A stretch of DNA of 64,000 bases from Nemertoderma westbladi (taxonomy: Eukaryota > Animalia > Xenacoelomorpha), in NCBI GenBank assembly GCA_032718475.1, contig JAUCBJ010009140.1, positions 52,488 to 116,487 of the forward strand, read 5' to 3'. Of this stretch, positions 6,001-54,840 are shown piece by piece. Each line of letters starts with the position of its first letter. The stretch's first letter is position 1. Under the pieces are notes generated by a model, which was not told the DNA's origin, did not search any database, and worked only from the letters and a program-made list of their open reading frames with translations. Made by a program: the position numbers and the translations under genes.

Positions 6001-6848
6001 AACCAATCTTATATCCAACCAATCTTATATCCAACCAATCATATATCCAACCAATCATATATCCAACCATTATTATATCCAACCAATCTTACTGTATCCA
6101 ACCAATCTTACTGTATCCAACCAATCTTATATCCAACCAATCTTATATCCAACCAATCTTACTGTATCCAACCAATCTTACTGTATCCAACCAATCTTAC
6201 TGTATCCAACCAATCTTACTGTATCCAACCAATCTTACTGTATCCAACCAATCTTACTGTATCCAACCAATCTTACTGTATCCAACCAATCTTACTGTAT
6301 CCAACCAATCTTACTGTATCCAACCAATCTTACTGTATCCAACCAATCTTATATCAAACCAATCTTACTGTATCCAACCAATCTTACTGTATCCAACCAA
6401 TCTTACTGTATCCAACCAATCTTACTGTATCCAACCAATCTTACCGTATCCAACCAATCTTATATCCAACCAATCTTACTGTATCCAACCAATCTTTACT
6501 GTATCCAACCAATCTTACTGTATCCAACCAATCTTATATCCATCCAATCTTACTGTATCCAACCAATCTTTACTGTATCCAACCAATCTTATATCCAACC
6601 AATCTTATACCCGACCAATCTTATATCCAACCAATCTTATACCCAACCAATCTTATATCCAACCAATCTTACTGTATCCAACCAATCTTACTGTATCCAA
6701 CCAATCTTATATCCAACCAATCTTATATCCAACCAATCTTACTGTATCCAACCAATCTTACTGTATCCAACCAATCTTACTATATCCAACCAATCTTACT
6801 GTATCCTACCAATCTTACTATATCCAACCAATCTTACTGTATCTTACT
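1..6848. repeat. 16/19-bp minisatellite (ATCCAACCAATCTTAT / ATCCAACCAATCTTACTGT), roughly 390 units, runs off the window start
   Basis: Direct inspection: interspersed 16-bp and 19-bp units with minor variants (CATAT, ATTATTAT, CTTC). Ends immediately next to the TAA at 6849-6851 of the minus-strand ORF. Confidence 0.97.
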
Positions 6849-7531
6849 TTACTGCATCTCGCCAATCCCAATATATCGAACTGCATCCCACCAATATCTC
6901 GCCTGGTCAGTCGAAATAAATTTAAATTTGCTATCAGATTGACAAATTCTCCTGAGGTTATCTGCTGCTGCAAAAAGCTCAACTCTAACCATCTCTCTGT
7001 CAGTATTGAACAAATTGGTTTGGTTAGGGTTTGTACATAGTTCAGCCGATAGTTCTGCAGAGATCTCGGTAGGTAGTTCGGCCGATATTTCGGTAGGTAG
7101 TTCGATCTCATCTGATGTAGTGTTAACCTCGATCTCATGGCTGAAAGGTTCAAGACAATTGTTCCACGGTACTAGAAGATCTTCTGTTGCATTGCCGGGG
7201 GAACCAACTTCGTCATCACCATCCAATTCCTCTGAGCTTTCAAATAAACATTCATTGACATTATGGTTACCGCTACCGGTATCGACACTGGTAGTTTTGT
7301 GTTGTTGCACTGGAGTTCCTAGTTCCAAACATGTCCCTAGTTCCAAACATGTTCCAAGTTCCAAACAATTACCACGATCGGCGCAGGTTTCCAGTTCCAA
7401 GCAGTTATATTGTTTCGATTGTTTCAGCTTTGATCGTTTCGATAAACACGAACGGCTTTTGCTCTTGACATGTTTATTTGTTTTATTTAATAAAAAATCT
7501 CTTCGCTTCAATTTTCTTCTAGTCTTTATAT
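6849..7531 (-). CDS. Exon 9 (post-HTH linker B3 plus acidic low-complexity C-terminal region)
   Basis: Acceptor TTATTTTCAG|AT; reads DIKTRRKLKRRDFLLNK, homologous to DLKKRVKLEGTNYIFNK and DLKARMKLKGTDFIFNQ. Contains CLELGT and ELPTEISA repeats. 3' end is either the TAA at 6851-6849 or a donor (CA|GTAAAG at 6852). Confidence 0.7.
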
Positions 7532-10500
7532 CTGAAAATAAGTTAATATTGTATTAATAAATAAAAACTAGTTAAACTAGTTAGCGGTGCTTGCGCACTG
7601 CGGAAGAAGCTCTCTAGCTTCAGACGACTGTTCAACTGTCCACCTCTTCGTTCAAGTTACACTCAAAATAATGTATATACATCAATGTATATATATCACA
7701 TCTAAATGACCTTTATTATGTTCTTTAAGAGTTAAAGAACAGAAGGCGGCGCATAATTATTGACCTTTCAATAAGTTTACTATATTATTATTAGAAGTTC
7801 GTTAGGACTTCTTACTGTTAAAGTATTCACTATCTATCTATGTGTATGTATGTATGTATGTATCTGTGTATGTATGTATGTATGTATGTATGTATGTATG
7901 TATGTGTATCGGGTGAACTGTTCCGAAGCTATAGTTTCTCCGTCAATGAAAGTTATATCAATCGACCCAACTCAACCCCAGGATGTGGAAAAATGTTTCG
8001 GAAAAAATTATTAAAGCGTCTTTTTTTTATTTCGAAAAATAGCTCCAAAACACGAAATTTGCCATAGACTCAATGATAGAAACACCAGCTGCTGGTGATC
8101 ATGAAGGCCTAGTAAATTACTAACTATTGATTGAATGGATAGGCCCAAACTGCACAGAAGTATATTACTTGCCAAGTTTATTACTCTCTCACTCTATCCC
8201 AGACAAGTAATCAAATATTAACTGGTTGTTTGTAAGGTATTATCCCGCCAGCTGAATAGCCCTTCCCTGTGTGCCAACTAATAGTGTATTATTATTGTAG
8301 TATACTAGGCCTACACAAGTTTGTAATGTATTATCCCGCCAGCTGAATAGCTCTTCCCAGTGTGCCAACTAATAAAGGCCTACACAAGTTTGTAATGTAT
8401 TATCCCGCCAGCTGCATAGCTCTTCCCAGTGTACCAACTAATAGTATATATATTATTATAGCATACTAGGCCTACACAAGTTTGTAATGTATTATCCCGC
8501 CAGCTGAATAGCTCTAGTAGGTCTATATACATGATATTGTAGCTCTAGCCAATCAGAGAGCTAAATTCCACAACACGTTTTTTTTCTTCATCATGTCCAA
8601 AAATCAGCGGAAGAATGGAGACAGGAAAGAAGCTAAGAGTTTCTTAATTAAAAAATATATCAGTTGTCTGACATGGATGAACAATAGTGAATAATAAACT
8701 GAACACTATACCTGGATGGTCTGTTGGGAAATAAACTATACCTGGATGGTCTGTTGGGAAATAAACTATAGCTGGATGGTCTGTTGGGAAATAAACTATA
8801 CCTGGATGGTCTGTTGGGAAATAAACTATACCTGGATGGTTTGTTGGGAAATAAACTATACCTGGATGGTTTGTTGGGTAATAAACTATACCTGGATGGT
8901 CTGTTGGGAAATAAACTATACCTGGATGGTTTGTTGGTAAATAAACTATACCTGGATGGTCTGTTGGGAAATAAACTATACCTGGATGGTTTGTTGGGAA
9001 ATAAACTATACCTGGATGGTCTGTTGGGAAATAAACTATACCTGGATGGTCTGTTGGGAAATAAACTATACCTGGATGGTTTGTTGGGAAATAAACTATA
9101 CCTGGATGGTCTGTTTTCTTAACGAATTTTCTCATCGTCTCATAAGGAACACCATTTTTGGAACACGAGTGCTTCAAACTGGATCCCTTTAGGTAGTCGC
9201 TGAAAGTGGCTTCTACTTGTTTAGGAGTGTATTTGCGAGAAGAGAAATTCAAACGACCTAAATTGAAAATGGTTTAATAACAATTTATCAAAACAATTCA
9301 AATTGATAAAATTATATAGACTTTAAAGAGCGTGGATTCTAGTGGGTAGTAGAAGGAAGCAGATCTCGGCTACCGGTATTACGTACAGGTACTGCGTCAA
9401 TACAACTACCAATACGCTTGTGCAGGCAGAATAATGGCTACGCTCACAAGTAATTAAAAGCCAGATCATATCAAATCAAGAAGAAAAACATAAACGGGAA
9501 TAAACATTATTTAGTAACATAAACCGCCCCCAAATTGGAAATCTTAAACTGAAACACTAGGCTCTTATTCAAGTATAGATAAGGAATTTAACGGAATATA
9601 TAAAAGTAGAAGTAGACGTAGTAAAAGTAGAATATAACAGAAGACAGAGAAGAAAGAAGAACCAACCTGTTGAAATGTAAAAAGACACTAAAGATTGCTA
9701 CAATGAACGCATGCACGCTGAAAGCACTTACCAAACATAGTGACATGGTCGCTCTGGCAATGGAATATAACATCGACATCATCTGCATCCAAGAACATCG
9801 GATTTGTCATGAAGACACTGCCATGAAGTACAATGACATTGGAAATGGATGAACGCTAGTGACAAGTTCAGCAGTAAGAAACTCGGCCAATGCATCAATT
9901 GGTGGAGTAGGAATTCTGCTAAGCCCATTTGCACTTAAGACCCTAAACAACATCGAATCTATAAATTCCAGGGTTATGATCGCAACATTTGATGGGAATC
10001 CCAAGGCAACAGTTATATGTTGCTACAGTCCAACCAATGCCTCAGAGCCAGAACAAGCAGTCAAGTTTTATGAAGATCTGACTATTCTATTCTATATAGG
10101 ATTAGGCCTCACATAGAGAAACTACTGCGTAAGAGCCAAAACGGATTTCGACCAAGTAGATCAACGATAGCTCAAATACTTGCACTACGGAGACTTATTG
10201 AAGGAATTAAGTCAAAGAATCTCCCCGCAGTCATGACTTTTGTGGACTTCAAGAAGGCATTCGACTCCATCCATAGAGGTAAAATGCTTGAAATCCTAAG
10301 AGCTTATGGAATACCAGAAGTAATTGTTGCTGGCATTGGATTGTTATATTGTGACACAGAAGCGCAGGTACTCTCACCAGATGGTGAAACTGAGTTTTTT
10401 TTCTCAATCCTGGCTGGCGTACTGCAAGGTGACACATTAGCACCATTACTATTTGTAATTGTGCTGGATTACGCAATGAGGACGGCCACAAAGGGTGAAG

Positions 10501-13500: not shown

Positions 13501-16500
13501 CTGGGAATCCTAGTCTCTGGTAAAGTTGCGGATCATATACTAGGTTTAAGGTTTTACCAGCGAGTTTCTGGGAATCCTAAAGTTGCGGATCATATACTAG
13601 GTTTAAGGTTTTACCAGCGAGTTTCTGGGAATCCTAGTTTCTGGTAAAGTTGCGGATCATATGCTAGGTTTAAAGTTTTACCGGCGAGTTTCTGGGAATC
13701 CTAGTTTCTGTTAAAGTTGCGGATCATATACTAGGTTTAAGGTTTTACCAGCGAGTTTCTGGGAATCCTAGTTTCTGGTAAAGTTGCGGATCATATACTA
13801 GGTTTAAGGTTTTACCAGAGAGTTTCTGGGAATCCTAGTTTCTGGTAAAGTTGCGGATCATATACTAGGTTTAAGGTTTTACCAGCGAGTTTCTGGGAAT
13901 CCTAGTTTCTGGTAAAGTTGCGGATCATATACTAGGTTTAAGGTTTTACCATCGAGTTTCTGGGAATCCTAGTTTCTGGTAAAGTTGCGGATCATATACT
14001 AGGTTTAAGGTTTTACCAGCGAGTTTCTGGGAATCATAGTTTCTGGTAAAGTTGCGGATCATATACTAGGTTTAAGGTTTTACCGGCGAGTTTCTGGGAA
14101 TCCTAGTTTCTGGTAAAGTTGCGGATGATATACTAGGTTTACGGTTTTACCAGCGAGTTTCTGGGAATCATAGTTTCTGGTAAAGTTGCGGATCATATAC
14201 TAGGTTTAAGGTTTTACCGGCGAGTTTCTGGGAATCCTAAAGTTGCGGATCATATACTAGGTTTAAGGTTTTACCAGCGAGTTTCTGGGAATCCTAGTTT
14301 CTGGTAAAGTTGCGGATCATATACTAGGTTTAAGGTTTTACCAGCGAGCTTCTGGGAATCCTAGTTTCTGGTAAAGTTGCGGATCATATACTAGGTTTAA
14401 GGTTTTACCAGCGAGTTTCTGGGAATCCTAGTTTCTGGTAAAGTTGCGGATCATATACTAGGTTTAAGGTTTTACCAGCGAGTTTCTGGGAATCCTAGTT
14501 TCTGGTAAAGTTGCGGATCATATACTAGGTTTAAAGTCTTACCAACGAGTTTCTGGGAATCCTAGTTTCTGGTAAATTTGTACAAAATAATAAATTGAGT
14601 GAGTAGTACAGTAGACCTACGCCATGAGGAGTCTATTGAGTAAACATGGGCCACGTATTCCAAGGGTGTTAAGAAATAAATATAAAAATTTATACAAAAC
14701 TTTCCAAAAGTATGACCTATAAAATATTAGCAACCAACCCAGCGCTATTCTATGTCAGATTTCAGATTCATAGGATTCCGTTAGGATTTGGCATACAATT
14801 AGTTTCGTTTACGCAATAAAGACGCCTTGATAAGAAAAGTAAAATAAATCCCAGACTTACAAGATTCTTCAAACAACTCTCCTTTAGTTGCACCAGTATT
14901 GTCGCAACAAACTATTTTTCTGGATCGTTGTCTCTTTCTGCGTCTTCCAATGTCCCCCTTGTTGACTTCGTTCTCATTCACGACATCGTCGTCCACAACC
15001 TCTGTGGTTCTGAAACTCTCGCTATTATCAACTATTTCCGATACATCGATTTTCTTCTTATCCAGAATTTTATTAAAGATATAATTTGTTCCTTCTAACT
15101 TCACTCTCTTCTTTAAATCTACGATTGAAGAGAATAACAATTTTATTATATGTTTTTATTCATTTCAACTGTAGGAAATTAGTGAGGAAATAAACTATAC
15201 CTGGATGGTCTGTTGGGAAATAAACTATACCTAGATGGTTTGTTGGGAAATAAACTATACCTGGATGGTTTGTTGGGAAATAAACTATACCTGGATGGTT
15301 TGTTGGGAAATAAACTATACCTGGATGGTCTGTTGGGAAATAAACTATACCTGGATGGTTTGTTGGGAAATAAACTATACCTGGATGGTTTGTTGGGTAA
15401 TAAACTATACCTGGATGGTTTGTTGGGTAATAAACTATACCTGGATGGTTTGTTGGGAAATAAACTATACCTGGATGGTTTGTTGGGAAATAAACTATAC
15501 CTAGATGGTTTGTTGGGAAATAAACTATACCTGGATGGTTTGTTGGGTAATAAACTATACCTGGATGGTTTGTTGGGAAATAAACTATACCTGGATGGTT
15601 TGTTGGGAAATAAACTATACCTGGATGGTCTGTTGGGAAATAAACTATACCTGGATGGTTTGTTGGGAAATAAACTATACCTGGATGGTATGTTGGGAAA
15701 TAAACTATACCTGGATGGTTTGTTGGGTAATAAACTATACCTGGATGGTCTGTTGGGTAATAAACTATACCTGGATGGTTTGTTGGGAAATAAACTATAC
15801 CTGGATGGTTTGTTGGGAAATAAACTATACCTGGATGGTCTGTTGGGTAATAAACTATACCTGGATGGTTTGTTGGGAAATAAACTATACCTGGATGGTT
15901 TGTTGGGAAATAAACTATACCTGGATGGTCTGTTGGGAAATAAACTATACCTGGATGGTCTGTTGGGAAATAAACTATACTTGGATGGTTTGTTGGGAAA
16001 TAAACTATACCTGGATGGTTTGTTGGGAAATAAACTATACCTGGATGGTATGTTGGGAAATAAACTATACCTGGATGGTCTGTTGGGAAATAAACTATAC
16101 CTGGATGGTTTGTTGGGAAATAAACTATACCTGGATGGTATGTTGGGAAATAAACTATACCTGGATGGTTTGTTGGGTAATAAACTATACCTGGATGGTC
16201 TGTTGGGTAATAAACTATACCTGGATGGTTTGTTGGGAAATAAACTATACCTGGATGGTATGTTGGGAAATAAACTATACCTGGATGGTTTGTTGGGTAA
16301 TAAACTATACCTGGATGGTCTGTTGGGTAATAAACTTTACCTGGATGGTTTGTTGGGAAATAAACTATACCTGGATGGTTTGTTGGGAAATAAACTATAC
16401 CTGGATGGTTTGTTGGGAAATAAACTATACCTGGATGGTATGTTGGGAAATAAACTATACCTGGATGGTTTGTTGGGTAATAAACTATACCTGGATGGTT

Positions 16501-19500
16501 TGTTGGGAAATAAAATATACCTGGATGGTATGTTGGGAAATAAACTATACCTGGATGGTTTGTTGGGTAATAAACTATACCTGGATGGTCTGTTGGGTAA
16601 TAAACTATACCTGGATGGTTTGTTGGGAAATAAACTATACCTGGATGGTTTGTTGGGAAATAAACTATACCTGGATGGTCTGTTGGGTAATAAACTATAC
16701 CTGGATGGTTTGTTGGGAAATAAACTATACCTGGATGGTTTGTTGGGAAATAAACTATACCTGGATGGTCTGTTGGGAAATAAAATATACCTGGATGGTT
16801 TGTTGGGTAATAAACTATACCTGGATGGTTTGTTGGGTAATAAACTATACCTGGATGGTTTGTTGGGAAATAAACTATACCTGGATGGTTTGTTGGGTAA
16901 TAAACTATACCTGGATGGTTTGTTGGGAAATAAACTATACCTGGTTGGTTTGTTGGGAAATAAACTATACCTGGATGGTATGTTGGGAAATAAACTATAC
17001 CTGGATGGTCTGTTGGGAAATAAACTATACCTGGATGGTTTGTTGGGTAATAAACTATACCTGGATGGTTTGTTGGGTAATAAACTATACCTGGATGGTC
17101 TGTTGGGAAATAAACTATACCTGGATGGTTTGTTGGGAAATAAACTATACCTGGATGGTTTGTTGGGTAATAAACTATACCTGGATGGTCTGTTGGGAAA
17201 TAAACTATACCTGGATGGTCTGTTGGGAAATAAACTATACCTGGATGGTCTGTTGGGAAATAAACTATACCTGGATGGTTTGTTGGGTAATAAACTATAC
17301 CTGGATGGTCTGTTGGGTAATAAACTATACCTGGATGGTCTGTTGGGAAATAAACTATACCTGGATGGTTTGTTGGGAAATAAACTATACCTGGATGGTT
17401 TGTTGGGAAATAAACTATACCTGGAAGGTATGTTGGGAAATAAACTATACCTGGATGGTCTGTTGGGAAATAAACTATACCTGGATGGTCTGTTGGGAAA
17501 TAAACTATACCTGGATGGTTTGTTGGGAAATAAACTATACCTGGATGGTTTGTTGGGAAATAAACTATACCTGGATGGTATGTTGGGAAATAAACTATAC
17601 CTGGATGGTTTGTTGGGAAATAAACTATACCTGGATGGTTTGTTGGGTAATAAACTATACCTGGATGGTTTGTTGGGAAATAAACTATACCTGGATGGTT
17701 TGTGGGTAATAAACTATACCTGGATGGTTTGTTGGGAAATAAACTATACCTGGATGGTTTGTTGGGTAATAAACTATACCTGGATGGTTTGTTGGGAAAT
17801 AAACTATACCTGGAAGGTCTGTTGGGAAATAAACTATACCTGGATGGTCTGTTGGGAAATAAACTATACCTGGATGGTCTGTTGGGAAATAAACTATACC
17901 TGGATGGTTTGTTGGGTAATAAACTATACCTGGATGGTTTGTTGGGAAATAAACTATACCTGGAAGGTCTGTTGGGAAATAAACTATACCTGGATGGTCT
18001 GTTGGGAAATAAACTATACCTGGATGGTCTGTTGGGAAATAAACTATACCTGGATGGTTTGTTGGGAAATAAACTATACCTGGATGGTATGTTGGGAAAT
18101 AAACTATACCTGGATGGTTTGTTGGGAAATAAACTATACCTGGATGGTTTGTTGGGAAATAAACTATACCTGGATGGTTTGTTGGGTAATAAACTATACC
18201 TGGATGGTTTGTTGGGAAATAAACTATACCTGGATGGTCTATTGGGAAATAAACTGTACCTGGATGGTCTGTTGGGAAATAAACTATACCTGGAGCTGGA
18301 TGGTTTGTTGGGAAATAAACTATACCTTGATGGTGTGTTGGGAAATAAACTATACCTGGATGGTTTGTTGGGTAATAAACTATACCTGGATGGTTTGTTG
18401 GGAAATAAACTATACCTGGATGGTCTGTTGGGAAATAAACTATACCTGGATGGTTTGTTGGGAAATACACTATACCTGGATGGTTTGTTGGGTAATAAAC
18501 TATACCTGGATGGTTTGTTGGGAAATAAACTATACCTGGATGGTCTGTTGGGAAATAAACTATACCTGGATGGTCTGTTGGGAAATAAACTATACCTGGA
18601 TGGTTTGTTGGGAAATAAACTATACCTGGATGGTTTGTTGGGAAATAAACTATACCTGGATGGTCTGTATTCTTAATGAATGTTCTCATCGTCTCATAAG
18701 GAACACCATTTTTGGAACAAGACCTTTTCAAATTGCATCCATTTAGGTAGTCGTTTAAAGTGGCTTCTACTTGTTTATGAGTATATTTGCGACGATTCCA
18801 ACGACCTAAATATATAATAAATATGGTGTTTAATGATTTCCTTAGGAATAATCCTACACTCGGACTATGTTCAGTCAGACAAAACATTAATACCATTTAC
18901 GACTACTATTGCTACTACTCACGGCATGCTGCATTATTACATATACCGTATTTCTTCGAATAAGATCCCACCCCCCCCCTCAAATAAACATAAACTCGAA
19001 TTAACGCCCCCATTACCATAAAATTAGCAACTTAAACGCCTTCCCCGAATAAACGACCCGTCGTTTAATAATATTACTATGTGGGGCGAGCCACGATTAG
19101 TGACCGATGCCTCTAGCACACAATTGTCATTAATATATAAGCCAAATGTCATGTGACTGAAGGTAAATACTGTTGGGTGTTGTACCGCGGTAATAGGCTG
19201 TATGTGAATAAAGTTAATCCTAGTTTTATTTGAATTATTTCATTTGTTTAACTTGTTTTCTTGAATTCAACAACATTCTTTATTAGGGTATTTAGATTAA
19301 AAATTCTGAAAATCTAAAACATAAACTATTAAAAAAAAATTCAAGGCCAGTGTCCTTTAAGATGCGTCTCAAGAAAGTCATGGGCTGTCCACCATGCTTA
19401 TTCACTCCATGAGGCTGCCAAAGCGAAAGATTATGCTCTGGAAGTTCCTAACATCGAAAGCAATGTTCTGCAAACCATTAACGAAGCATATTAGGAAACA

Positions 19501-43500: not shown

Positions 43501-46500
43501 AAACCCTTCCACTCTGTTTCCTAAAGGAATGCCTGTTAACCACCATGGGTGATCTTCCATAGTAAACCCTTCCACTCTGTTACCTAAAGGAATGCCTGTT
43601 CTCCACCATGGGTGATCTTCCACAGTAAACCCTTCCACTCGGTTTGCTAAATGAATGCCTGTTCTCCACCATGGTTGATCTTCCACAGTAAACCCTTCCA
43701 CTCTGTTTCCTAAAGGAATACCTGTTCACCACCATGGGTGATCTTCCACAGTAAACCCTTCCACTCTGTTTCCTAAAGGAGTGCCTATTCAGCACCATGG
43801 GTGATGAACCACAGTAAACCCTTCCACTCTGTTCTCCACCATGGGTGATCTTCCACAGTAAACCCTTCCACTCTGTTTCCTAAAGGAATGCCTGTTCACC
43901 ACCATCAGTGATCTTCCACAGTAAACCCTTCCACTCTGTTTCCTAAAGGAATACCTGTTCACCACCATGGGTGATTACTGATCTTCCCAGTAATCCCTTC
44001 CACTCTGTTTCCTAAAGGAGTTCCTGTTCAGCACCATGGGTGATCTTCCACAGTAAACCTTCCACTCTGTTTCCTAAAGGAATACCTGTTCACCACCATG
44101 GGTGTGATCTTCCACAGTAAACCCTTCCACTCTGTTTCCTAAAGGAGTGCCTGTTCAGCACCATGGGTGATCTTCCACAGTAAACCCTTCCACTCTGTTT
44201 CCTAAAGGAATGCCTGTTCTCCACCATGGTTGATCTTCCACAGTAAACCCTTCCACTCTGTTTGCTAAATGAATGCCAGTTCACCACCATGGGTGATCTT
44301 CCACAGTAAACCCTTCCACTCTGTTTCCTAAAGGAATGCTTGTTCACCACCATGGTTGATCTTCCACAGTAAACCCTTCCACTCTGTTTCCTAAAGGAAT
44401 GCCTGTTCACCACCATGGTTGATCTTCTACAGTAAACCCTTCCAATCTCTTTCCTAAAGGAGTGCCTGTTCAGCACCATGGGTGATCTTCCACAGTAAAC
44501 CCTTCCACTCTGTTTCCTAAAGGAATGCCTGTTCTCCACCATGGTTGATCTTCCACAGTAAACCCTTCCACTCTGTTTCCTAAAGGAATGCTTGTTCACC
44601 ACCATGGTTGATCTTCCACAGTAAACCCTTCCACTCTGTTTGCTAAATGAATGCCTGTTCACCACCATGGTTGATCTTCCACAGTAAACCCTTCCACTCT
44701 GTTTCCTAAAGGAATGCTTGTTCACCACCATGGTTGATCTTCCACAGTAAACCCTTCCACTCTGTTTCCTAAAGGAATACCTATTCACCACCATGGGTGA
44801 TCTTCCACAGTAAACCCTTCCACTCTGTTTCCTAAAGGAATGCCTGTTCTCCACCATGGGTGATCTTCCACAGTAAACCCTTCCACTCTGTTTCCTAAAG
44901 GAATGCCTGTTAACCACCATGGGTGATCTTCCATAGTAAACCCTTCCACTCTGTTACCTAAAGGAATGCCTGTTCTCCACCATGGGTGATCTTCCACAGT
45001 AAACCCTTCCACTCGGTTTGCTAAATGAATGCCTGTTCTCCACCATGGTTGATCTTCCACAGTAAACCCTTCCACTCTGTTTTCTAAAGGAATGCCTGTT
45101 CTCCACCATGGTTGATCTTCCACAGTAAACCCTTCCACTCAGTTTCCTAAAGGAATGCTTGTTCACCACCATGGTTGATCTTCCACAGTAAACCCTTCCA
45201 CTCTGTTTCCTAAAGGAATGCCTGTTCACCACCATGGTTGATCTTCTACAGTAAACCCTTCCAATCTGTTTCCTAAAGGAGTGCCTGTTCAGCACCATGG
45301 GTGATCTTCCACAGTAAACCCTTCCACTCTGTTTCCTAAAGGAATGCCTGTTCTCCACCATGGGTGATCTTCCACAGTAAACCCTTCCACTCTGTTTGCT
45401 AAATGAATGCCTGTTCACTACTATGGTTGATCTTCCACAGTAAACCCTTCCACTCTGTTTCCTAAAGGAGTGCCTGTTCAGCACCATGGGTGATCTTCCA
45501 CAGTAAACCCTTCCACTCTGTTCTCCACCATGGGTGATCTTCCACAGTAAACCCTTCCACTCTGTTTCCTAAAGGAATGCCTGTTCACCACCATCAGTGA
45601 TCTTCCACAGTAAACCCTTCCACTCTGTTTCCTAAAGGAATACCTGTTCACCACCATGGGTGATTACTGATCTTCCACAGTAATCCCTTCCACTCTGTTT
45701 CCTAAAGGAGTTCCTGTTCAGCACCATGGGTGATCTTCCACAGTAAACCTTCCACTCTGTTTCCTAAAGGAATACCTGTTCACCACCATGGGTGATCTTC
45801 CACAGTAAACCCTTCCACTCTGTTTCCTAAAGGAGTGCCTGTTCAGCACCATGGGTGATCTTCCACAGTAAACCCTTCCACTCTGTTTCCTAAAGGAATG
45901 CCTGTTCTCCACCATGGTTGATCTTCCACAGTAAACCCTTCCACTCTGTTTGCTAAATAAATGCCTGTTCACCACCATGGGTGATCTTCCACAGTAAACC
46001 CTTCCACTCTGTTTCCTAAAGGAATGCTTGTTCACCACCATGGTTGATCTTCCACAGTAAACCCTTCCACTCTGTTTCCTAAAGGAATGCCTGTTCACCA
46101 CCATGGTTGATCTTCTACAGTAAACCCTTCCAATCTGTTTCCTAAAGGAATGCCTGTTCACCACCATGATTGATCTTCTACAGTAAACCCTTCCACTCTG
46201 TTTCCTAAAGGAGTGCCTGTTCAGCACCATGGGTGATCTTCCACAGTAAACCCTTCCACTCTGTTTCCTAAAGGAATGCCTGTTCTCCACCATGGTTGAT
46301 CTTCCACAGTAAACCCTTCCACTCTGTTTCCTAAAGGAATGCTTGTTCACCACCATGGTTGATCTTCCACAGTAAACCCTTCCACTCTGTTTCCTAAAGG
46401 AATGCCTGTTCACCACCATGGTTGATCTTCTACAGTAAACCCTTCCAATCTGTTTCCTAAAGGAGTGCCTGTTCAGCACCATGGGTGATCTTCCACAGTA

Positions 46501-49500
46501 AACCCTTCCACTCTGTTTGCTAAATGAATGCCTGTTCACCACCATGGTTGATCTTCCACAGTAAACCCTTCCACTCTGTTTCCTAAAGGAATGCTTGTTC
46601 ACCACCATGGTTGATCTTCCACAGTAAACCCTTCCACTCTGTTTCCTAAAGGAATACCTGTTCACCACCATGGTTGATCTTCCACAGTAAACCCTTCCAC
46701 TCTGTTTGCTAAATGAATGCCTGTTCACCACCATGGTTGATCTTCCACAGTAAACCCTTCCACTCTGTTTCCTAAAGGAATGCTTGTTCACCACCATGGT
46801 TGATCTTCCACAGTAAACCCTTCCACTCTGTTTCCTAAAGGAATACCTATTCACCACCATGGGTGATCTTCCACAGTAAACCCTTCCACTCTGTTTCCTA
46901 AAGGAATGCCTGTTCTCCACCATGGGTGATCTTCCACAGTAAACCCTTCCACTCTGTTTCCTAAAGGAATGCTTGTTCACCACCATGGTTGATCTTCCAC
47001 AGTAAACCCTTCCACTCTGTTTGCTAAATGAATGCCTGTTCACCACCATGGTTGATCTTCCACAGTAAACCCTTCCACTCTGTTTCCTAAAGGAATGCTT
47101 GTTCACCACCATGGTTGATCTTCCACAGTAAACCCTTCCACTCTGTTTCCTAAAGGAATACCTATTCACCACCATGGGTGATCTTCCACAGTAAACCCTT
47201 CCACTCTGTTACCTAAAGGAATGCCTGTTCTCCACCATGGGTGATCTTCCACAGTAAACCCTTCCACTCTGTTTGCTAAATGAATGCCTGTTCACCACCA
47301 TGGTTGATCTTCCACAGTAAACCCTTCCACTCTGTTTTCTAAAGGAATGCCTGTTCTCCACCATGGTTGATCTTCCACAGTAAACCCTTCCACTCTGTTT
47401 CCTAAAGGAATGCTTGTTCACCACCATGGTTGATCTTCCACAGTAAACCCTTCCACTCTGTTTCCTAAAGGAATGCCTGTTCACCACCATGGTTGATCTT
47501 CTACAGTAAACCCTTCCAATCCGTTTCCTAAAGGAGTGCCTGTTCAGCACCATGGGTGATCTTCCACAGTAAACCCTTCCACTCTGTTTCCTAAAGGAAT
47601 ACCTGTTCACCACCATGGGTGATCTTCCACACTAAACCCTTCCACTCTGTTTCCTAAAGGAGTGCCTGTTCAGCACCATGGGTGATCTTCCACAGTAAAC
47701 CCTTCCACTCTGTTCTCCACCATGGGTGATCTTCCACAGTAAACCCTCCCACTCTGTTTCCTAAAGGAATGCCTGTTCACCACCATCAGTGATCTTCCAC
47801 AGTAAACCCTTCCACTCTGTTTCCTAAAGGAATACCTGTTCACCACCATGGGTGATTACTGATCTTCCACAGTAATCCCTTCCACTCTGTTTCCTAAAGG
47901 AGTTCCTGTTCAGCACCATGGGTGATCTTCCACAGTAAACCTTCCACTCTGTTTCCTAAAGGAATACCTGTTCACCACCATGGGTGTGATCTTCCACAGT
48001 AAACCCTTCCACTCTGTTTCCTAAAGGAGTGCCTGTTCAGCACCATGGGTGATCTTCCACAGTAAACCCTTCCACTATGTTTCCTAAAGGAATGCCTGTT
48101 CTCCACCATGGTTGATCTTCCACAGTAAACCCTTCCACTCTGTTTGCTAAATGAATGCCTGTTCACCACCATGGGTGATCTTCCACAGTAAACCCTTCCA
48201 CTCTGTTTCCTAAAGGAATGCTTGTTCACCACCATGGTTGATCTTCCACAGTAAACCCTTCCACTCTGTTTCCTAAAGGAATGCCTGTTCACCACCATGG
48301 TTGATCTTCTACAGTAAACCCTTCCAATCTGTTTCCTAAAGGAATGCCTGTTCACCACCATGGTTGATCTTCTACAGTAAACCCTTCCAATCTGTTTCCT
48401 AAAGGAGTGCCTGTTCAGCACCATGGGTGATCTTCCACAGTAAACCCTTCCACTCTGTTTCCTAAAGGAATGCCTGTTCTCCACCATGGTTGATCTTCCA
48501 CAGTAAACCCTTCCACTCTGTTTCCTAAAGGAATGCTTGTTCACCACCATGGTTGATCTTCCACAGTAAACCCTTCCACTCTGTTTCCTAAAGGAATGCC
48601 TGTTCACCACCATGGTTGATCTTCTACAGTAAACCCTTCCAATCTGTTTCCTAAAGGAGTGCCTGTTCAGCACCATGGGTGATCTTCCACAGTAAACCCT
48701 TCCACTCTGTTTGCTAAATGAATGCCTGTTCACCACCATGGTTGATCTTCCACAGTAAACCCTTCCACTCTGTTTCCTAAAGGAATGCTTGTTCACCACC
48801 ATGGTTGATCTTCCACAGTAAACCCTTCCACTCTGTTTCCTAAAGGAATACCTGTTCACCACCATAGTTGATCTTCCACAGTAAACCCTTCCACTCTGTT
48901 TCCTAAAGGAATGCCTGTTCAACACCATGGGTGATCTTCCACAGTAAACCATTCCACTCTGTGTTTCCTAAAGGAATGCCTGTTCACCACCATGGGTGAT
49001 CTTCCACAGTAAACCCTTCCACTCTGTTTCCTAAAGGAATACCTGTTCACCACCATAGTTGATCTTCCACAGTAAACCCTTCCACTCTGTTTCCTAAAGG
49101 AATGCCTGTTCACCACCATGGGTGATCTTCCACAGTAAACCATTCCACTCTGTGTTTCCTAAAGGAATGCCTGTTCACCACCATGGGTGATCTTCCACAG
49201 TAAACCCTTCCACTCTGTTTCCCAAGTGCAGTCAAGGATCAAAGCCAAGGTTGGTCTAGGCTGAAGAATTTAAAGCACTGTGCCCAAATAGCGCTGCCCC
49301 ATCTAGGGATCGAACCAGGGCTTCCTAATTGGAAGCCCAGGCATGTCATCCATCACTAGACTAAGCTGCAAATTCGTCACTATATGCAACTGAATAAGAT
49401 TTATTTAATTGATAATTAAATTTGAAATCAACTAACCGATTCCAACATTGAAATTAATTTCTAAACTTACGTAACACGTTTGTAAACTAAGATTAATTGA

Positions 49501-52500
49501 CATTGACACTAACGTGTTTTGTTCATCGCACTCACCTGATCTCTTCTGTCCCTTTTCTAGCCATAATGGTTTAAAGCAGTCAGCAATAATTATCTTAACA
49601 TTGTGTTTGTGTTGGAGTTTGCGTCCGTGTTGGTTCGCTGTTTTGCCTGATCCCGTGGTGTACTTAGTCCATTTCCTGAAATTAACAACATTTAATCTGA
49701 TTAGGTTAACAAATGTGTGGTTTTTTTTTTCAATATAGTATTTTATAAATGAACAGCCCTGTTTAATTTTTTCTTGTTGATTTAGATCCCGAGTTTATCA
49801 AGGAACCCATGAATGACCCGAGCTGTTTTTTGCATCTCTTATTTAATTCTCAAAATATAAGTAGTCGGAAATTATTTTAAATTATAGATCCAGCCAATAT
49901 ATTTGTGCAATATCATAACTACCAAAATTCAAATTCTTAAAAACGAAGACTGCAGCCGTTGTTCCCAAACAATAACATACATAAATAACTGCCATATATT
50001 CACTTTTACTGTTTTCAGAATTTTACATTATTTAAAGAAAATAAATGAAGTAAAATTCAATAAAATTTTTTTTTTAATTTTAATAAAAATAACAAACAGG
50101 TGATTTAAAGAGGAGTGGGTGTTGACATAAACCCACCTTTTGTTAACTGCATAATTTGTTGATTTCTTCTCTCGGCCCAGACTGCAGGTGGAATTCCTAT
50201 CCTTCAAAGCTGCCGAAATATAAACATTATGTGAGTGAATGATATATTTTAAGATTTTTCATCCCCCACCCCCTCACTGCTTAAAATACACTTAGTAGTT
50301 TACGCTACTCCCTTTCTAGGCGAAAATTAACTACATTACTGCGGGGGGAGGGGGTAGTATACCATGCGCTGGTTATTAACTGGAGAGGGATGGATTTTGA
50401 TACGTCCACTGCTTGGGAAATAAACCATACGTCTGCATTGTCTTTTGGGAAATAAACTATACCTGGATGGTTTGTTGGGTAATAAACTATACCTGGATGG
50501 TTTGTTGGTAAATAAACTATACCTGGATGGTTTGTTGGGAAATAAACTATACCTGGAGCTGGATGGTTTGTTGGGAAATAAACTATACCTGGATGGTTTG
50601 TTGGGAAATAAACTATACCTGGATGGTTTGCTGGGAAATAAACTATACCTGGAGCTGGATGGTTTGTTGGGAAATAAACTATACCTGGATGGTTTGTTGG
50701 GAAATAAACTATACCTGGATGGTTTGTTGGTAAATAAACTATACCTGGATGGTTTGTTGGGAAATAAACTATACCTGGATGGTTTGTTGGGAAATAAACT
50801 ATACCTGGAGCTGGATGGTTTGTTGGGAAATAAACTATACCTGGATGGTTTGTTGGGAAATAAACTATACCTGGATGGTTTGTTGGGAAATAAACTATAC
50901 CTGGATGGTTTGTTGGGTAATAAACTATACCTGGATGGTCTGTTGGGTAATAAACTATACCTGGATGGTTTGTTGGGAAATAAACTATACCTGGATGGTT
51001 TGTTGGGAAATAAACTATACCTGGATGGTTTGTTGGGTAATAAACTATACCTGGATGGTATGTTGGGAAATAAACTATACCTGGATGGTCTGTTGGGAAA
51101 TAAACTATACCTGGATGGTCTGTTGGGAAATAAACTATACCTGGATGGTATGTTGGGAAATAAACTATACCTGGATGGTTTGTTGGGAAATAAACTATAC
51201 CTGGATGGTTTGTTGGGAAATAAACTATACCTGGATGGTTTGTTGGGAAATAAACTATACCTGGATGGTCTGTTGGGAAATAAACTATACCTGGATGGTA
51301 TGTTGGGAAATAAACTATACCTGGATGGTTTGTTGGGAAATAAACTATACCTGGATGGTTTGTTGGGAAATAAACTATACCTGGATGGTTTGTTGGGAAA
51401 TAAACTATACCTGGATGGTATGTTGGGAAATAAACTATACCTGGATGGTTTGTTGGGAAATAAACTATACCTGGATGGTCTGTTGGGAAATAAACTATAC
51501 CTGGATGGTCTGTTGGGAAATAAACTATACCTGGATGGTATGTTGGGAAATAAACTATACCTGGATGGTTTGTTGGGAAATAAACTATACCTGGATGGTT
51601 TGTTGGGAAATAAACTATACCTGGATGGTTTGTTGGGAAATAAACTATACCTGGAACGTCTGTTGGGAAATAAACCATACCTGGATGGTTTGTTGGGAAA
51701 TAAACTATACCTGGATGCGGATGGTTTGTTGGGAAATAAACTATACCTAGATGGTTTGTTGGGAAATAAACTATACCTGGATGGTTTGTTGGGAAATAAA
51801 CTATACCTGGATGGTTTGTTGGGAAATAAACTATACCTGGATGGTTTGTTGGTAAATAAACTATACCTGGATGGTCTGCTGGGAAATAAACTATACCTGG
51901 ATGGTTTGTTGGGTAATAAACTATACCTGGATGGTTTGTTGGGTAATAAACTATACCTGGATGGTTTGTTTTCTTAACGAATTTTCTCATCGTCTCATAA
52001 GGAACACCATTTTTGAAACACGAGTGCTTCAAACTGGATCCCTTTAGGTAGTCGCGGAAAGTGGCTTCTACTTGTTCGATACTATAATTCCTTTTCATAA
52101 ATATACATCCTGTTCCTGCACGGACACATAAAGACAATTAAAAAAGTCGGATCCCTACCTATACAAACAAAAACCTACACAAATGTACTATATAAACGGA
52201 ATACGCTCATAACAGGTGCTTAGATCTTGGCTCTTCCAGTAACCAATTTATCAAATTCGTACAAAACAAGTGATGTGATGGGCACTATTCTTTCCAATGC
52301 ATGGTAGGCTACTGTAGTTTGTGGGGCGAGTCACGAAGTCCAGGTGATCATTTGCGGACCGGTATAATTAGTGGACTGTCTGTCTTCGTCGCCTTCACCA
52401 AGGAAACAATAATGGGGAAACTTAAAAGTATAGGAATGTCATTTATGAGATAAGAGATATTCAACAACCCCTGCGTTATCGAGACACAAAAAAAACCATA

Positions 52501-53214
52501 GAGAAACGACAGCGACACTAAACCATTCCCCTGTAAAGCAATTGATTGAACTTTTAAACTAGAGGGTACTCAAAATTATATTGCCTGAGGCATTACAAAA
52601 TAATATAATATGATGGAAAATTAGAAAATAATATATCGTCGTTGTTAATGTTTCCTGTATTTACTGTATTAATATTAAATGGATTAATCCATGACTATAC
52701 AGTAACACTAAACACTTTTATTAATATCTGGTTACAAATTTGGAATAAGGATAACCTGTTGTTTGAGTTACATATATTCCATTCTAGATTCTACATTAAC
52801 TCAGTGTTAAATAAGATCTGGAATAATAGTAACCTCAATTTTCGAGTTACCAATATTACATTTTCATTGACTCTGTGTTGAATATGAATAATGATAGATA
52901 ATGTGACTTGTTGCTACTTAGTAGCAATGTCTTCAAAAACGTCTCTTGTTTTCTACAAAATGGAATATTGGTTACTGGAAAAGCCACAATCTAAGCACCA
53001 TTCACAGTCTTCACACTCATATAACAAACATTTATAACATCATCCATTAACATAGCAATACTCAAATTAAGATGGGTAGCACAGCACAGGCTGACAGCCA
53101 GGCCAGACCTCGTATTATCTATTTCATACTAACCCTGTAACCCAGCTTACCTGTTTGCTTAGATTTTGATCCTGCCCGCGTCCGGATATTGTTCTTCGTA
53201 TTGATATCGGTCAT
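6849..53214 (-). CDS. Predicted 9-exon gene encoding a ~609-aa protein with three HTH_psq-like DNA-binding modules
   Basis: Exons 53214-53151, 52115-51957, 50209-50137, 49675-49536, 24393-24247, 18805-18656, 15118-14861, 9257-9102, 7531-6849. All have AG/GT boundaries and matching phases (1,1,2,1,1,1,1,1), and the lengths sum to 1830 nt with no internal stop. Motif RKY..QVEA...Y..G.SL..SC.KNGVPYETMR.FVK resembles the pipsqueak HTH (YS.E.L..A...V..G.MS...AA..YGVP.STL). No transcript evidence. Confidence 0.75.
7785..8060 (+). mobile_element. (TATG)n microsatellite within a probable non-autonomous Helentron/DINE-like element end
   Basis: TTATTATT, then hairpin AGAAGT..ACTTCT, then (TATC)/(TATG)n at about 7830-7908. 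This layout is typical of HINE/DINE-1-like elements; boundaries uncertain. Confidence 0.4.
8230..8515. repeat. Four-copy 69/91-bp tandem repeat (TATTATCCCGCCAGCTGAATAGC...GGCCTACACAAGTTTGTAATG)
   Basis: Core recurs at about 8238, 8329, 8398 and 8489. Confidence 0.85.
8705..9115 (-). repeat. 30-bp splice-junction array #3 (about 14 units)
   Basis: Minus-strand unit GTATAGTTTATTTCCCAACAAACCATCCAG; begins at the donor of the HTH exon 9257-9102. Confidence 0.97.
9102..9257 (-). CDS. Exon 8: HTH_psq-like module 3
   Basis: TTTCAATTTAG|GT CGT TTG...; RKYTPKQVEATFSDYLKGSSLKHSCSKNGVPYETMRKFVKKTDHP; donor CCAG|GTATAG; 156 nt, phase 1-1. Confidence 0.85.
9609..11267 (+). mobile_element. Degenerate, internally deleted RTE-like non-LTR retrotransposon (APE endonuclease fragment plus RT and C-terminal fragments)
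   Basis: IATMN..., DIICIQEHR, CYSPT (EN); VDFKKAFDSIHR, GVLQGDTLAP (RT); RGRPAITYIDQL; (TAG)n-like tail at about 11256-11267; candidate 12-bp TSD TATATAAAAGTA at 9597-9608 and 11268-11279; contains stops and frameshifts. Confidence 0.9.
11915..14576. repeat. 67-bp tandem array (about 40 units)
   Basis: Unit AAAGTTGCGGATCATATACTAGGTTTAAGGTTTTACCAGCGAGTTTCTGGGAATCCTAGTTTCTGGT; period 67 (e.g. 13981 to 14048); a few units carry a 12-bp deletion. Confidence 0.97.
14861..15118 (-). CDS. Exon 7: linker B2 with basic NLS-like stretch (RRRKRQRSRK)
   Basis: Acceptor TTCTCTTCAATCGTAG|AT, donor TCTT|GTAAGT, 258 nt, phase 1-1; paralogous to exon 24393-24247. Confidence 0.85.
15186..18668 (-). repeat. 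30-bp splice-junction array #2 (about 116 units)
   Basis: Same unit as arrays #1 and #3; one 1-bp deletion near 17702 and one 6-bp insertion near 18295; fills all but about 65 nt of the intron. Confidence 0.98.
18656..18805 (-). CDS. Exon 6: HTH_psq-like module 2
   Basis: TATATTTAG|GT CGT TGG...; RRKYTHKQVEATLNDYLNGCNLKRSCSKNGVPYETMRTFIKNTDHP; donor CCAG|GTATAG; 150 nt. Confidence 0.85.
18943..19060 (+). mobile_element. Possible end fragment of a Tc1/pogo-type MITE
   Basis: TA-CCGTATTTCTTCGAATAAGA followed by repeated CGAAT(A/T)AACG motifs; no partner end found. Confidence 0.3.
19735..19821 (+). pseudogene. tRNA-like pseudogene or SINE head followed by T6
   Basis: Acceptor stem GCTGGGG/TCCCAGC, A box TAGCTCAGTG, B box GGTTCGAATCC. 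The anticodon loop is enlarged (13 nt) and the T stem is mispaired. Confidence 0.6.
20570..20745 (+). promoter_or_regulatory. Candidate core promoter of the secreted-protein gene: GAS/STAT palindrome, C/EBP-like site, TATA box, Inr-like
   Basis: GGATTCCTGGAATCC (20570-20584, contains TTCCTGGAA), GTTACGCAAT (20601-20610), TATAAAA (20705-20711), CAGTT about 30 nt downstream. Confidence 0.5.
20805..21470 (+). CDS. Intronless secreted, acidic, cysteine-rich protein (221 aa), family not recognised
   Basis: ATG at 20805 in AAAATG context; signal-peptide-like MSPSVLLSVSIVLATLCCPTLG; 14 Cys in the mature part; GC content higher than the flanks; AATAAA at 21662. Confidence 0.8.
   Translation: MSPSVLLSVSIVLATLCCPTLGLVTCPMQTVTCPFDIDVSDVDVVDYYAKASSCINFNGGTEYTCSTENSCVFDYELDIPDGAEGETSVVAEISFRCPYEDETPRLLEMTMSEFPNLLQQLRISLIPNSEEDDVFTIVDQFKALFQMDTTCPKQTCRRDSIDHQYVCDTKNESCVSTHGCITNFVGYLTKRTDCATHDVCPLGIFSTPLIRPGLSQICGLH
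21780..21980 (+). mobile_element. Dispersed repeat carrying one diverged monomer of the 67-bp satellite plus its 3' flank
   Basis: ATCATATACTATGTATTAAAGTTTTACC...TTCTAGGAATC...TTTCTGGTAAATTTGT..AAAAT...TACGCCAT...ACGTATT...TGTTAA...AAAACTTCCAAAA is collinear with 14510-14710. Confidence 0.75.
23063..24140 (+). mobile_element. Non-autonomous repeat family (Helentron/DINE-like), with related ends near 19078, 20080, 52318 and 58255-58350
   Basis: Recurring 5' motif TG(T/C)GGGGCGAG.CACG, a GTCCGTCTGTCTGTC microsatellite, and a 3' block TTGTATCTCATAACTG..TCGTGCTGCGCGAA.GCCCCACGAACGTGT shared by 24050-24140 and 58255-58350. Confidence 0.5.
24247..24393 (-). CDS. Exon 5: linker B1
   Basis: Acceptor TTTTCTTTTCAATCACAG|AT, donor TCCT|GTAAGT, 147 nt, phase 1-1; DLKARMKLKGTDFIFNQILD...VSEIV...LFVDS parallels exon 7. 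Confidence 0.85.
25440..25690 (-). mobile_element. Probable tRNA-derived SINE
   Basis: Minus strand reads AGGTGGTTAAAGC...AAGGTCGTGAGTTCGAGCCCC (A and B boxes) followed by a unique body. Similar degraded heads occur at about 24586-24675 and 28017-28070. Confidence 0.5.
26039..27538 (+). CDS. SLC49A4: MFS transporter of the SLC49/FLVCR family, SLC49A4 (DIRC2)-like, 499 aa, intronless CDS
   Basis: N-terminal signature KVYKRRWYIL...NWNTWAPI, WFP..R.TATA, YFPEKPP.PP, PL.FEM.AE..YPV.E; about 12 hydrophobic segments; acceptor TTCACAG just upstream (5' UTR intron); AATAAA at 27597. Confidence 0.9.
   Translation: MDIQSLVESSRSDDVKTLFAKTPETKVYKRRWYILALFCSVGFVEFMNWNTWAPIEASAKLVYTWENSDIALLENWGFITLLLGTTVTTWLLDSKGMRVTMVITIALVTAGAGLRCITMEPTAATWLINIGQILNGFAGVLPNAGAPLLSVLWFPSNQRRTATAAATTSMYGGLALSFVVGPAIVKESKTHIEPPNYLHPLTLGITNQSYSSYQGNEQDTRNSKSDSTHLFGNQTDPITEQRRQIQTLVYLEFGISALLLILVLIYFPEKPPIPPTASASSIRTDFKKGSVTILRDRNFWFLALVYAVFSGLVISYLSVLSVDLETFGISQETAGWVGFYATLAGALGSILFARITDVMDIGMQTVVLLACVVGTVMFYAFTMVAKGYFPMTVASVYATIIATGLCANGIVPLLFEMAAELFYPVSEELIAGMMMVVQNGVAMLLLLVMMIPNIGVSWLDWTVLAGITMSVPVIAAVNATNKRSNFDKLKSQKSLNYIP
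28928..49222. repeat. 63-bp satellite, about 320 units as assembled, with higher-order repeat structure
   Basis: Unit TGTTCACCACCATGGGTGATCTTCCACAGTAAACCCTTCCACTCTGTTTCCTAAAGGAATGCC; variant blocks recur. Confidence 0.98.
40823..40922. other. Assembly gap (100 N)
   Basis: Run of exactly 100 N inside the satellite; true array length unknown. Confidence 0.99.
49536..49675 (-). CDS. Exon 4 (predicted)
   Basis: TTAATTTCAG|G AAA TGG... TCA G|GTGAGT; 140 nt. Only the phase-2 frame is open, matching the exon 3 donor, and it ends in phase 1, matching exon 5. Confidence 0.6.
50137..50209 (-). CDS. Exon 3 (predicted)
   Basis: TATATTTCGGCAG|CT TTG AAG GAT AGG ... AAA AG|GTGGGT; 73 nt, phase 1-2. Confidence 0.55.
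50446..51970 (-). repeat. 30-bp splice-junction array #1 (about 50 units)
   Basis: Same unit; four 6-bp insertions, all frame-preserving; a degenerate unit at about 50410-50430. Confidence 0.98.
51957..52115 (-). CDS. Exon 2: HTH_psq-like module 1
   Basis: GTGTCCGTGCAG|GA ACA...; KRNYSIEQVEATFRDYLKGSSLKHSCFKNGVPYETMRKFVKKTNHP; donor CCAG|GTATAG; 159 nt. Confidence 0.85.
53151..53214 (-). CDS. Exon 1 (predicted first coding exon, MTDINTKNNIRTRAGSKSKQT)
   Basis: ATG at 53214 with an upstream in-frame TAG; strong donor ACAG|GTAAGC in phase 1, compatible with exon 2. Confidence 0.6.
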
Positions 53215-54229
53215 TACGACACAATCCTACTGCCCTAAAGCCTTTCTGCCTTATATGAATGCGGCCCTCCAAACAAAGATTCAGCATAGCATAGTATTTA
53301 TTATAATTACAGTTGAGATATAGGTCTAGTGAGGTTAAATTCGCGTTGGTTCTGAGAGGATATTGCAGTATTCTTGCATTTGTTTTAAACTACTAACAAC
53401 TACTACTAAAAGAAAGCTATGCACTAAAAATTGTTAGAAGTTATTCCATTACAACAGGTCTAGTCTACCGACCTACCGGTATCTATGTCAGTATGTTAGC
53501 TGGTTAGTTAGTACGCCTACGACACCTACCTACATGTCTGTTGTAGGATTGTAGATACCGTAATGATAATATGTACAATCGCGAAATTGGTAGATTGTTA
53601 AACTAACACTGTGACCTGTTTGCAGCACCATACAGACATAAAATGCTGTAATACCAGAATGATGTATGCCTGGATGTGGACCTAGTACCAAGAACTGAAG
53701 AAACTTAGTACAGAAGTGCCGTCCCCGCGTCCCGATTCAGCAGGCCTGGTACTGTGTTAAGTAAGTTCCGTACCGCTGTACCGGTAGGTCTCTTTAAAGT
53801 ACAGAAGCAGGATAAAACAGCTGATAATCAGCTGACTAGGTTAGAGATGATTGGGTGAGTGGGTGTGAGTGATCACAAGTCCCTAAAGGCAGTGATTTTT
53901 TATGTCCTTTTATTTGACCTTTTTTGTCCTTTTTTTTTACGAATTGTGCATAATGACTTTTGTTGTCCTTTTAATGACTTTTGTTGTCCTTTTTATGTAT
54001 GTATTTCTTCAAACTGTCAGACTGCTGATTTCTGGACTGTCAGACAGTTGATTTCAACATGCCTATGCCAAAACATTCGAAATTTGTTGATTTCTGGTCT
54101 GTCGGACAGTTGGTTTCACTATGCCTGTGCCAAAACATTCCAAATTCCATGATTTATAAACTATGAGATAGATTTCCATATGCGCCTGTGGTAAAAGACC
54201 ACATGATGTATCAAAACACTCATTTTATA

Positions 54230-54840
54230 GCCAAAAACAATTACCAATTGATGGAAAGGAGCAGGTTAAGGCCGGATTTTCTAACCAAAACAATAAACAG
54301 TCACTTTACCAAATGAAGGAAAGGAGCAGGTTACAGAGGCGGGCCTTTCTAACCAAAACAATAAACGATCATTCAACTAATTGAGGGAAAGGAGCGGGTT
54401 ATAGAGGCGGGATTTTCTAACCAAAACAATAAACAGTCACTTTACCAAATCAGGGAAAGGAGCAGGTTACAGAGGCGGGCCTTTCTAACCAAAACAATAA
54501 AGGATCATTCAACTAATTGAGGGAAAGGAGCGGGTTACAGAGGCGGGATTTTCTAACCAAAATAATAAACAGTCACTTTACCAAATCAGGGAAAGGAGCA
54601 CGTTACAGAGACGGGATTTTCTAACCAAAACAATAAACGATAACATTACCAATTGAGAGAAAGGAGCAGGTTACAGAGGCGAGATTTTCTAACAAAAACA
54701 ATAAACAGTCACTTTACCAAATCAGGGAAAGGAGCAGGTTGCAGAGGCGGGCCTTTCTAACCAAAACAATAAACGGTCACTTTACCAAATTAGGGAAAGG
54801 AGCATGTTACAGAGGCAGGGTTTTCTAACCAAAACAATAA
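54230..54840. repeat. 68-bp tandem repeat (about 9 units, alternating A/B variants); degenerate units at 55620-55850
   Basis: CTAACCAAAACAATAAAC...GGAAAGGAGCAGGTTACAGAGGCGGG at 54281, 54349, 54417 and onward. Confidence 0.9.

Follow-up and report, generated by a model that had tools for sequence, protein, structure and literature searches.

Do nine short exons scattered among tandem repeats form a single gene, and what would such a gene encode? We examined this question in a stretch of 64,000 nucleotides (nt) from Nemertoderma westbladi (assembly GCA_032718475.1, contig JAUCBJ010009140.1, positions 52,488 to 116,487), which we call the window; all coordinates below are positions within it. 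The exons lie on its minus strand and run from 53214 to 6849. Judging from the sequence, we see a slightly better than even chance that they form the front part of a single host gene, which probably extends leftward past the edge of the window and whose product would be a nuclear DNA-binding protein with three paralogous predicted helix-turn-helix (HTH) domains. The product is likely a lineage-specific multi-HTH protein that binds repeated DNA sites, and the gene is likely a rapidly evolving animal regulator whose general type is already known. Its domestication from a transposase is plausible.

We rebuilt the exons independently by a splice-site scan of the non-repeat minus strand with boundary checks, and then joined them by coordinates. 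Splice scores come from a home-made weight matrix built on the splice-site consensus. The exons are as follows.

53214-53151, minus strand: E1, candidate first coding exon; 64 nt, ATG at 53214, 21 codons; the least certain exon
52115-51957, minus strand: A1, an HTH exon; 159 nt, phase 1-1; 97.6% identical to A3 over 126 nt
50209-50137, minus strand: X1; 73 nt, phase 1-2; from the splice-site scan and a shuffle test
49675-49536, minus strand: X2; 140 nt, phase 2-1; strongest GT donor in the model
24393-24247, minus strand: B1; 147 nt, phase 1-1; a basic helix-like start, then a spacer
18805-18656, minus strand: A2, an HTH exon; 150 nt, phase 1-1
15118-14861, minus strand: B2; 258 nt, phase 1-1; acidic and basic stretches
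9257-9102, minus strand: A3, an HTH exon; 156 nt, phase 1-1; resembles A2 at the 5′ end and A1 over the last 120 nt
7531-6849, minus strand: B3 as first joined; 683 nt, to the first stop
7531-6903, minus strand: B3 to a probable GC donor; 209 codons with a basic start, a long acidic low-complexity part and a late helix

As the original prediction held, the nine exons join through AG/GT boundaries and phases into one open frame of 1830 nt. This frame has 609 codons and no internal stop; the alternative frames of the same spliced sequence hold 38 and 53 stops. All eight introns are GT-AG, with the 16 splice dinucleotides intact. The donor of E1 is the sole strong GT donor within 53300-51970 (score 8.1). 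An in-frame stop lies immediately upstream of E1, which is overlapped by the frame of an out-of-frame upstream ATG, and A1 carries its own in-frame methionine. Within 53300-49230 and outside the array that follows A1, GT donors scoring at least 5 occur only at E1, X1 and X2. The latter two are non-repeated internal exons with complementary phases (1-2 and 2-1). An exon of X1 grade arose in 1 of 300 shuffles and one of X2 grade in none of 300, where the thresholds are the rounded observed scores and the “observed” column misses X1 and X2 themselves. The 209 codons of B3 stayed open in 0 of 20,000 shuffles. By their composition, the basic stretches in B2 are a possible nuclear-localisation signal. 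Rfam yielded no matches, and we dismissed the long open reading frames (ORFs) in the repeats as genes, since they are translations of tandem arrays.

The A exons are predicted to fold as an HTH of three helices and about 45 residues, in agreement with the fold originally proposed for them. AlphaFold2, run on the three-row alignment of the A exons, gave a model of A3 with helices at residues 11-22, 27-34 and 38-47 (mean predicted local distance difference test score, pLDDT, 82.7). Foldseek listed 319 matches to this model at E ≤ 10, and the HTH of human LCoR (2COB), which we take to be of psq type, has both the top probability (0.96) and the top TM-score (0.71). A also aligns without gaps to ten psq-type segments. 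The only Pfam family listed for the A exons is HTH_Tnp_1, at 13.6-19.3 bits and thus below its cut-off of 24.1 (A2 has E 0.0013). NCBIfam and PHROGs gave only sub-threshold matches of HTH type, and sequence searches of the PDB only chance matches to nanobodies. By these comparisons, A appears to be an HTH of the psq/transposase neighbourhood.

The claim that the protein is lineage-specific agrees with the lack of a close relative in the searches. HMMER found nine matches to A among 1.84 billion proteins at E ≤ 0.001 and none at 1e-10, and several of the nine owe their rank to summed repeats. A word-index search with the A alignment found no longer protein among 1125 candidates, which is weak evidence. 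At ranks 1 and 3, HMMER placed two multi-HTH_psq proteins, P0013 (508 amino acids) and P0015 (449 amino acids), which align to A without gaps and lack any catalytic Pfam domain. P0016 and P0020 exceed the cut-offs of several HTH families, with HTH_psq among them. P0019, one of the two best single-stretch matches, has HTH_psq below threshold only. Like the protein predicted here, P0013 and P0015 have spaced HTHs (at least four psq domains in them) with low-complexity linkers and no catalytic Pfam domain. They are distant, though: their single domains score 9-13 bits against the A profile, and the likeness is probably independent.

Pipsqueak itself has tandem psq motifs. With the proteins of its superfamily (Psq, Dan, E93 and LCoR), the modelled A domain would share the three-helix HTH of about 45 residues and a basic R-x-Y arm. 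The present gene differs from that superfamily in the missing Pfam HTH_psq match, in having no BTB domain in the window and a C-terminus probably beyond it, and in placing every HTH on a separate exon of phase 1-1 whose donor is spanned by a minisatellite. In Dan, a psq domain is accompanied by a disordered remainder (PMC11178893); here, too, the predicted HTHs stand beside a low-complexity remainder. Invertebrates commonly have species-specific HTH-Psq factors of transposon origin, of which 136 have been counted (PMC10027918). Like the species-specific sets described there for Hydra, Aplysia, Biomphalaria and Octopus, the present protein has no orthologue that we found.

The original prediction described a pair of an A and a B exon that occurs three times. 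Three paralogous A exons are indeed present, but in the exon order A1-X1-X2-B1-A2-B2-A3-B3 an A adjoins a B in only two of the three modules, and B3 matches B1 over just 16 residues (E 0.09 in the window). Besides the near-identity of A1 and A3, A2 and A3 are 85.7% identical over 168 nt, and B1 and B2 76.7% over 146 nt, about 26 nt of the acceptor included. The donors of B1 and B2 are homologous, as are those of the A exons. The acceptors of A2 and A3 are homologous, while that of A1 is not. The upstream similarity score of A2/A3 was reached by 7 of 200 shuffles, and that of B1/B2 by none of 200. A1, A2, A3, B1 and B2 all have phase 1-1 and a length that is a multiple of three. None of the indels that separate the copies shifts the frame: internal ones measure 6 and 9 nt, and the difference in length is 111 nt. 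Paralogous exons of equal phase with homologous splice sites are what a gene enlarged by duplication of symmetric exons should show, and this one probably arose in that way.

The sequence of A3 is a mosaic of the other two A exons. Its first 18 compared bases favour A2 (8:0), whereas the last 120 favour A1 (13:3), giving a Fisher p of 2e-4 for a breakpoint picked after looking. We found no fourth A or B exon in the non-repeat sequence of the window, and X2 shows no similarity to A, which rules it out as a decayed A exon. The first 18 nt of X1 are weakly B-like, so the partner of A1 may be a shortened B exon and B1 may have lost its A; 6 of 1027 other AG sites match B starts equally well.

Substitutions between the copies point to weak constraint on residues. 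The ratio of non-synonymous to synonymous differences per site (pN/pS) is 0.75-1.07 among the A copies and 0.5 for B1/B2. Pooled, A2/A3 and B1/B2 show 12.3 synonymous versus 29.7 non-synonymous differences, or a pN/pS of about 0.6, and an omega of 0.2 is rejected (P 0.0004). Together with the kept frame and splice sites, this pattern would fit a fast-evolving gene, with a small chance of a pseudogene. We dropped the missing similarity between introns as proof of selection, because the ancestral introns may have been short and filled later.

Several observations weigh against one host gene with psq-like HTHs. For the pooled copies, an omega of 0.5 or 1 is not rejected (omega 1: P 0.12). The donors of the A exons are weak (score 1.6). 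The exon chain has an alternative, since splicing A1 straight to B1 would also keep the frame. An assembly gap of 100 Ns lies at 40823-40922, inside the intron between X2 and B1. No Foldseek match reaches E 0.001; LCoR has E 0.46, and a myb domain comes first by E. Of the nine HMMER relatives, five belong to other HTH types or are unrelated repeats, P0014, P0017, P0018 and P0021 among them, and one more is a mixed case. Pfam HTH_psq (PF05225, cut-off 20.4 bits) matches none of the three A exons at E ≤ 10. A reaches 30-40 bits against a profile of psq segments and 39-44 bits against one of 13 other HTH segments (3000 shuffles, at most 8), both profiles being built from matches that A had selected. 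Of the proposed HTH_psq-like modules, the three-helix HTH is thus borne out by the model, but the profiles do not separate psq from other HTHs, and “psq-like” is the furthest label supported because the Pfam family is unmatched.

Some of these points also bear on whether the locus is a decaying pseudogene or a silent set of duplicated exons, which we consider highly improbable. It would account for the high pN/pS of the A copies with neutrality not rejected, and for weak A donors that are followed by many rival donors. Yet no stop or frameshift occurs in 592 codons, every length difference keeps the frame, and no splice dinucleotide is damaged; the probability that a frame stays open by chance is 0.24-0.46 per comparison.

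The rival donors belong to three arrays. Each A donor is the first unit of one common 30-bp repeat, which consists of the last 15 nt of the exon and the first 15 nt of the intron.

50413..51970, minus strand: 30-bp minisatellite after A1; 51 copies; 48 spare donors, 48/48 in frame and open
15186..18668, minus strand: 30-bp minisatellite after A2; 116 copies; 29 of its 107 spare donors in frame and open; followed by just 68 nt of intron outside the array
8705..9115, minus strand: 30-bp minisatellite after A3; 14 copies; 12 spare donors, 12/12 in frame and open

Eight unit variants are common to different arrays, up to 43 kb apart. From these variants and the mosaic structure of A3, we infer that the arrays may have promoted gene conversion. 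The openness of the arrays needs no function, because chance alone leaves a 30-bp unit in frame and free of stops in about 2/9 of cases.

A similar arrangement is found in intron 7 of human F7, where the first unit of a variable number tandem repeat spans the exon-intron border, identical spare donors follow the true donor, and only the most upstream donor is used (PMC1557585). The F7 unit is 37 bp long, whereas here three paralogous arrays of 14-116 units have in-frame 30-bp units. Spare in-frame donors could therefore add units of 10 residues here, in contrast to the use of the first donor alone in F7. The minisatellites might even be a working device, in which a choice among 12-48 in-frame donors would set the spacer after each head in 10-residue steps and exchange between arrays would shuffle the heads. 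The result would be a multi-HTH reader of repeated DNA that evolves fast and can be tuned in length, domesticated independently much as CENP-B was. We regard this as hardly probable at all. Literature searches turned up no paper that describes this gene or arrays spanning the donors of duplicated HTH exons, a weak negative given their partial coverage.

Where the gene ends was originally read from the stop at 6849, with the 609-residue frame as the whole protein. This is probably wrong. Two features beyond the GC donor are relevant.

6902-6849, minus strand: read-through tail, closed by the first stop; made of decayed initial units of a 19-bp satellite, probably intron
1..6843, no strand assigned: 19-bp satellite that continues past the window edge; probably part of the following intron; no unique island

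Starting at 6900, 14-15 of 19 bases in the frame agree with the satellite unit, compared with at most 13 in 610 upstream windows, so the last 18 codons (54 nt) are a decayed satellite edge. The GC donor at 6903 sits where this likeness starts. Apart from its GC, it scores 7.2 and is one of three such sites in 18,851 nt; no GT donor in B3 exceeds 2.6. Neither AATAAA nor ATTAAA occurs on the minus strand in the 6849 nt after the stop. Because of the satellite edge, the strong GC donor and the lack of a poly(A) signal, the gene probably continues to the left, with its C-terminus outside the window. B3 would then end at 6903 in phase 0, giving 592 codons so far. That the 609-residue frame is nevertheless complete, with B3 as the last exon, is unlikely. 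This solution has the merit of closing without a non-canonical splice site, and GC donors make up only about 1% of human introns (PMC3167603), but it leaves a decayed satellite as coding sequence right behind a strong donor and a stop without a following poly(A) signal.

A gene that runs on could contain more than what is visible, and for this reason the lack of a catalytic domain holds for the window only. In the window, neither a DDE nor a BTB domain occurs in any of the 144 non-repeat ORFs of at least 52 amino acids, as had been claimed. For BTB this includes the 10.8 kb upstream of E1, in a scan that misses exons shorter than 52 codons or farther upstream. The exons might encode the N-terminal portion of a transposase, or of a protein derived from one, in a gene rich in introns and with its catalytic domain to the left of the window; we consider this distinctly unlikely. 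The sole Pfam match of A is to HTH_Tnp_1, and the final helix of B3 could mark the start of another domain. P0019 counts for the same idea, as its sequence resembles a transposase N-terminus. Against it, three spaced HTHs with a 130-residue acidic tract are, to our knowledge, not a usual transposase front. No second HTH of CENP-B type (HTH_Tnp_Tc5) follows any A or occurs elsewhere in the window. Residues 150-226 of B3 have no longer relative in a word-index protein search (0 of 54), again weak evidence, and the single-sequence model of B3 (pLDDT 38) is uninformative beyond two late helices.

HTH_psq is an N-terminal domain of Fot/pogo transposases, and most domesticated vertebrate pogo copies keep the DDE domain (PMC7386202), which also speaks for a transposase front. 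The A domain would be of the same N-terminal HTH class as those transposases and the domesticated CENPB, TIGD, JRK, POGK and POGZ genes. Unlike them, the present gene has many introns and, in the window, neither DDE nor HTH_Tnp_Tc5. No terminal inverted repeats bracket a module among the five longest pairs per region or in self-BLAST, the left end lying beyond the window.

The window DNA is AT-rich, and 28,412 of the 46,366 bases in the gene span lie in tandem arrays. The largest of these makes up most of the intron between X2 and B1.

28927..49222, no strand assigned: 63-bp satellite, most of the X2-B1 intron; about 20 kb, nearly CpG-free, with the 100-N gap and an exact duplication

The duplication is 4951 nt long (30148 and 35353), and together with the gap it is possibly an assembly artefact. 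Unique islands that could hide exons inside the big arrays were ruled out, the longest rare run being 54 nt. The figure of 46 kb first given for the span is uncertain because the intron holds both the gap and the duplication. The linking of the two exon blocks rests on scaffolding and matching phase. It is conceivable, if quite unlikely, that E1-A1-X1-X2 and B1-A2-B2-A3-B3 are two separate paralogous genes, joined across the satellite gap and with their missing ends inside it. Such a split would suit the disturbed assembly, the non-homologous acceptor of A1 and the presence of X1, rather than a clear B, after it; two opposite-strand genes also lie in or beside this intron. On the other hand, X2 ends and B1 starts in phase 1, neither block shows its missing end in the visible sequence, and the same satellite stands on both sides of the gap.

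For a single host gene, the following history would be consistent with these data. An ancestral exon with an HTH of psq/transposase type and its downstream exon, both of phase 1-1, would have been duplicated in tandem, and the symmetry of their phases would explain the lack of frameshifts. A 30-bp unit across the A donor would then have expanded in all three copies, exchange between the arrays would have carried adjoining exon sequence from copy to copy, and the introns would have swelled by satellites, retroelements and nested genes. In the present gene, splicing would use the foremost donor in every array, as in human F7, and would link B3 through its GC donor at 6903 to further exons outside the window. 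The three HTHs, with identical starts of the third helix, may grip repeated copies of one short DNA site, while the acidic part of B3 may act on chromatin or transcription.

If confirmed, this would add a clear and recent instance of symmetric exon duplication giving rise to a lineage-specific DNA-binding protein, and an example of how such genes escape annotation. The kind itself is already known by dozens in invertebrate genomes, to judge from the 136 HTH-Psq factors of PMC10027918. The locus would also offer a natural test of splice-site choice in an invertebrate, with three paralogous exons that each have 12-107 identical donors, many of them in frame. The F7 rule that the first donor wins could be read directly from junction reads in this gene.

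Other genes and repeats share the window. An intronless gene of 499 codons for a major facilitator superfamily (MFS) transporter (26039-27538, plus strand) lies antisense within the X2-B1 intron. Twelve matches at 33-39% identity are SLC49A4 homologues from molluscs, a nemertean and a hydrozoan; they point to an animal source, probably an invertebrate whose lineage is poorly sampled. The gene is a possible retrocopy. An intronless, cysteine-rich ORF of 221 codons with a signal-peptide-like start (20805-21470, plus strand) is antisense within the B1-A2 intron and has no Pfam match. An exact look-up of five window ORFs, this one included, found none in the protein collection. Starting right after the B1 donor, a 35-nt inverted pair (22026-22060 and 24202-24236, 86% identical, 2.1 kb apart) could mark insertion ends. 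In the E1-A1 intron, 62-nt inverted arms (52215-52999, 82%) are a possible miniature inverted-repeat transposable element (MITE).

Two broken copies of one long interspersed nuclear element (LINE) occur at 9630-11258, directly upstream of A3, and at 59691-60518, both on the plus strand; they have endonuclease and RVT_1 matches and are 96.7% identical over 448 nt. A 499-codon ORF (56868-58367, minus strand) contains a 146-nt internal inverted duplication (57490-57635/58110-58255) and has no Pfam match; a tblastn search of the 56871-58367 ORF against phages gave nothing. Presumably, it is a Penelope-type retroelement, with a reverse transcriptase followed by a GIY-YIG-like end. Further arrays have units of 67 bp (11917-14580, 40 copies) and 50 bp (62361-63036, 13.5 copies). 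Finally, inverted arms at 53897-53999 and 55314-55401 flank a 68-bp tandem array (54241-54841), forming a MITE-like element that bears tandem repeats.

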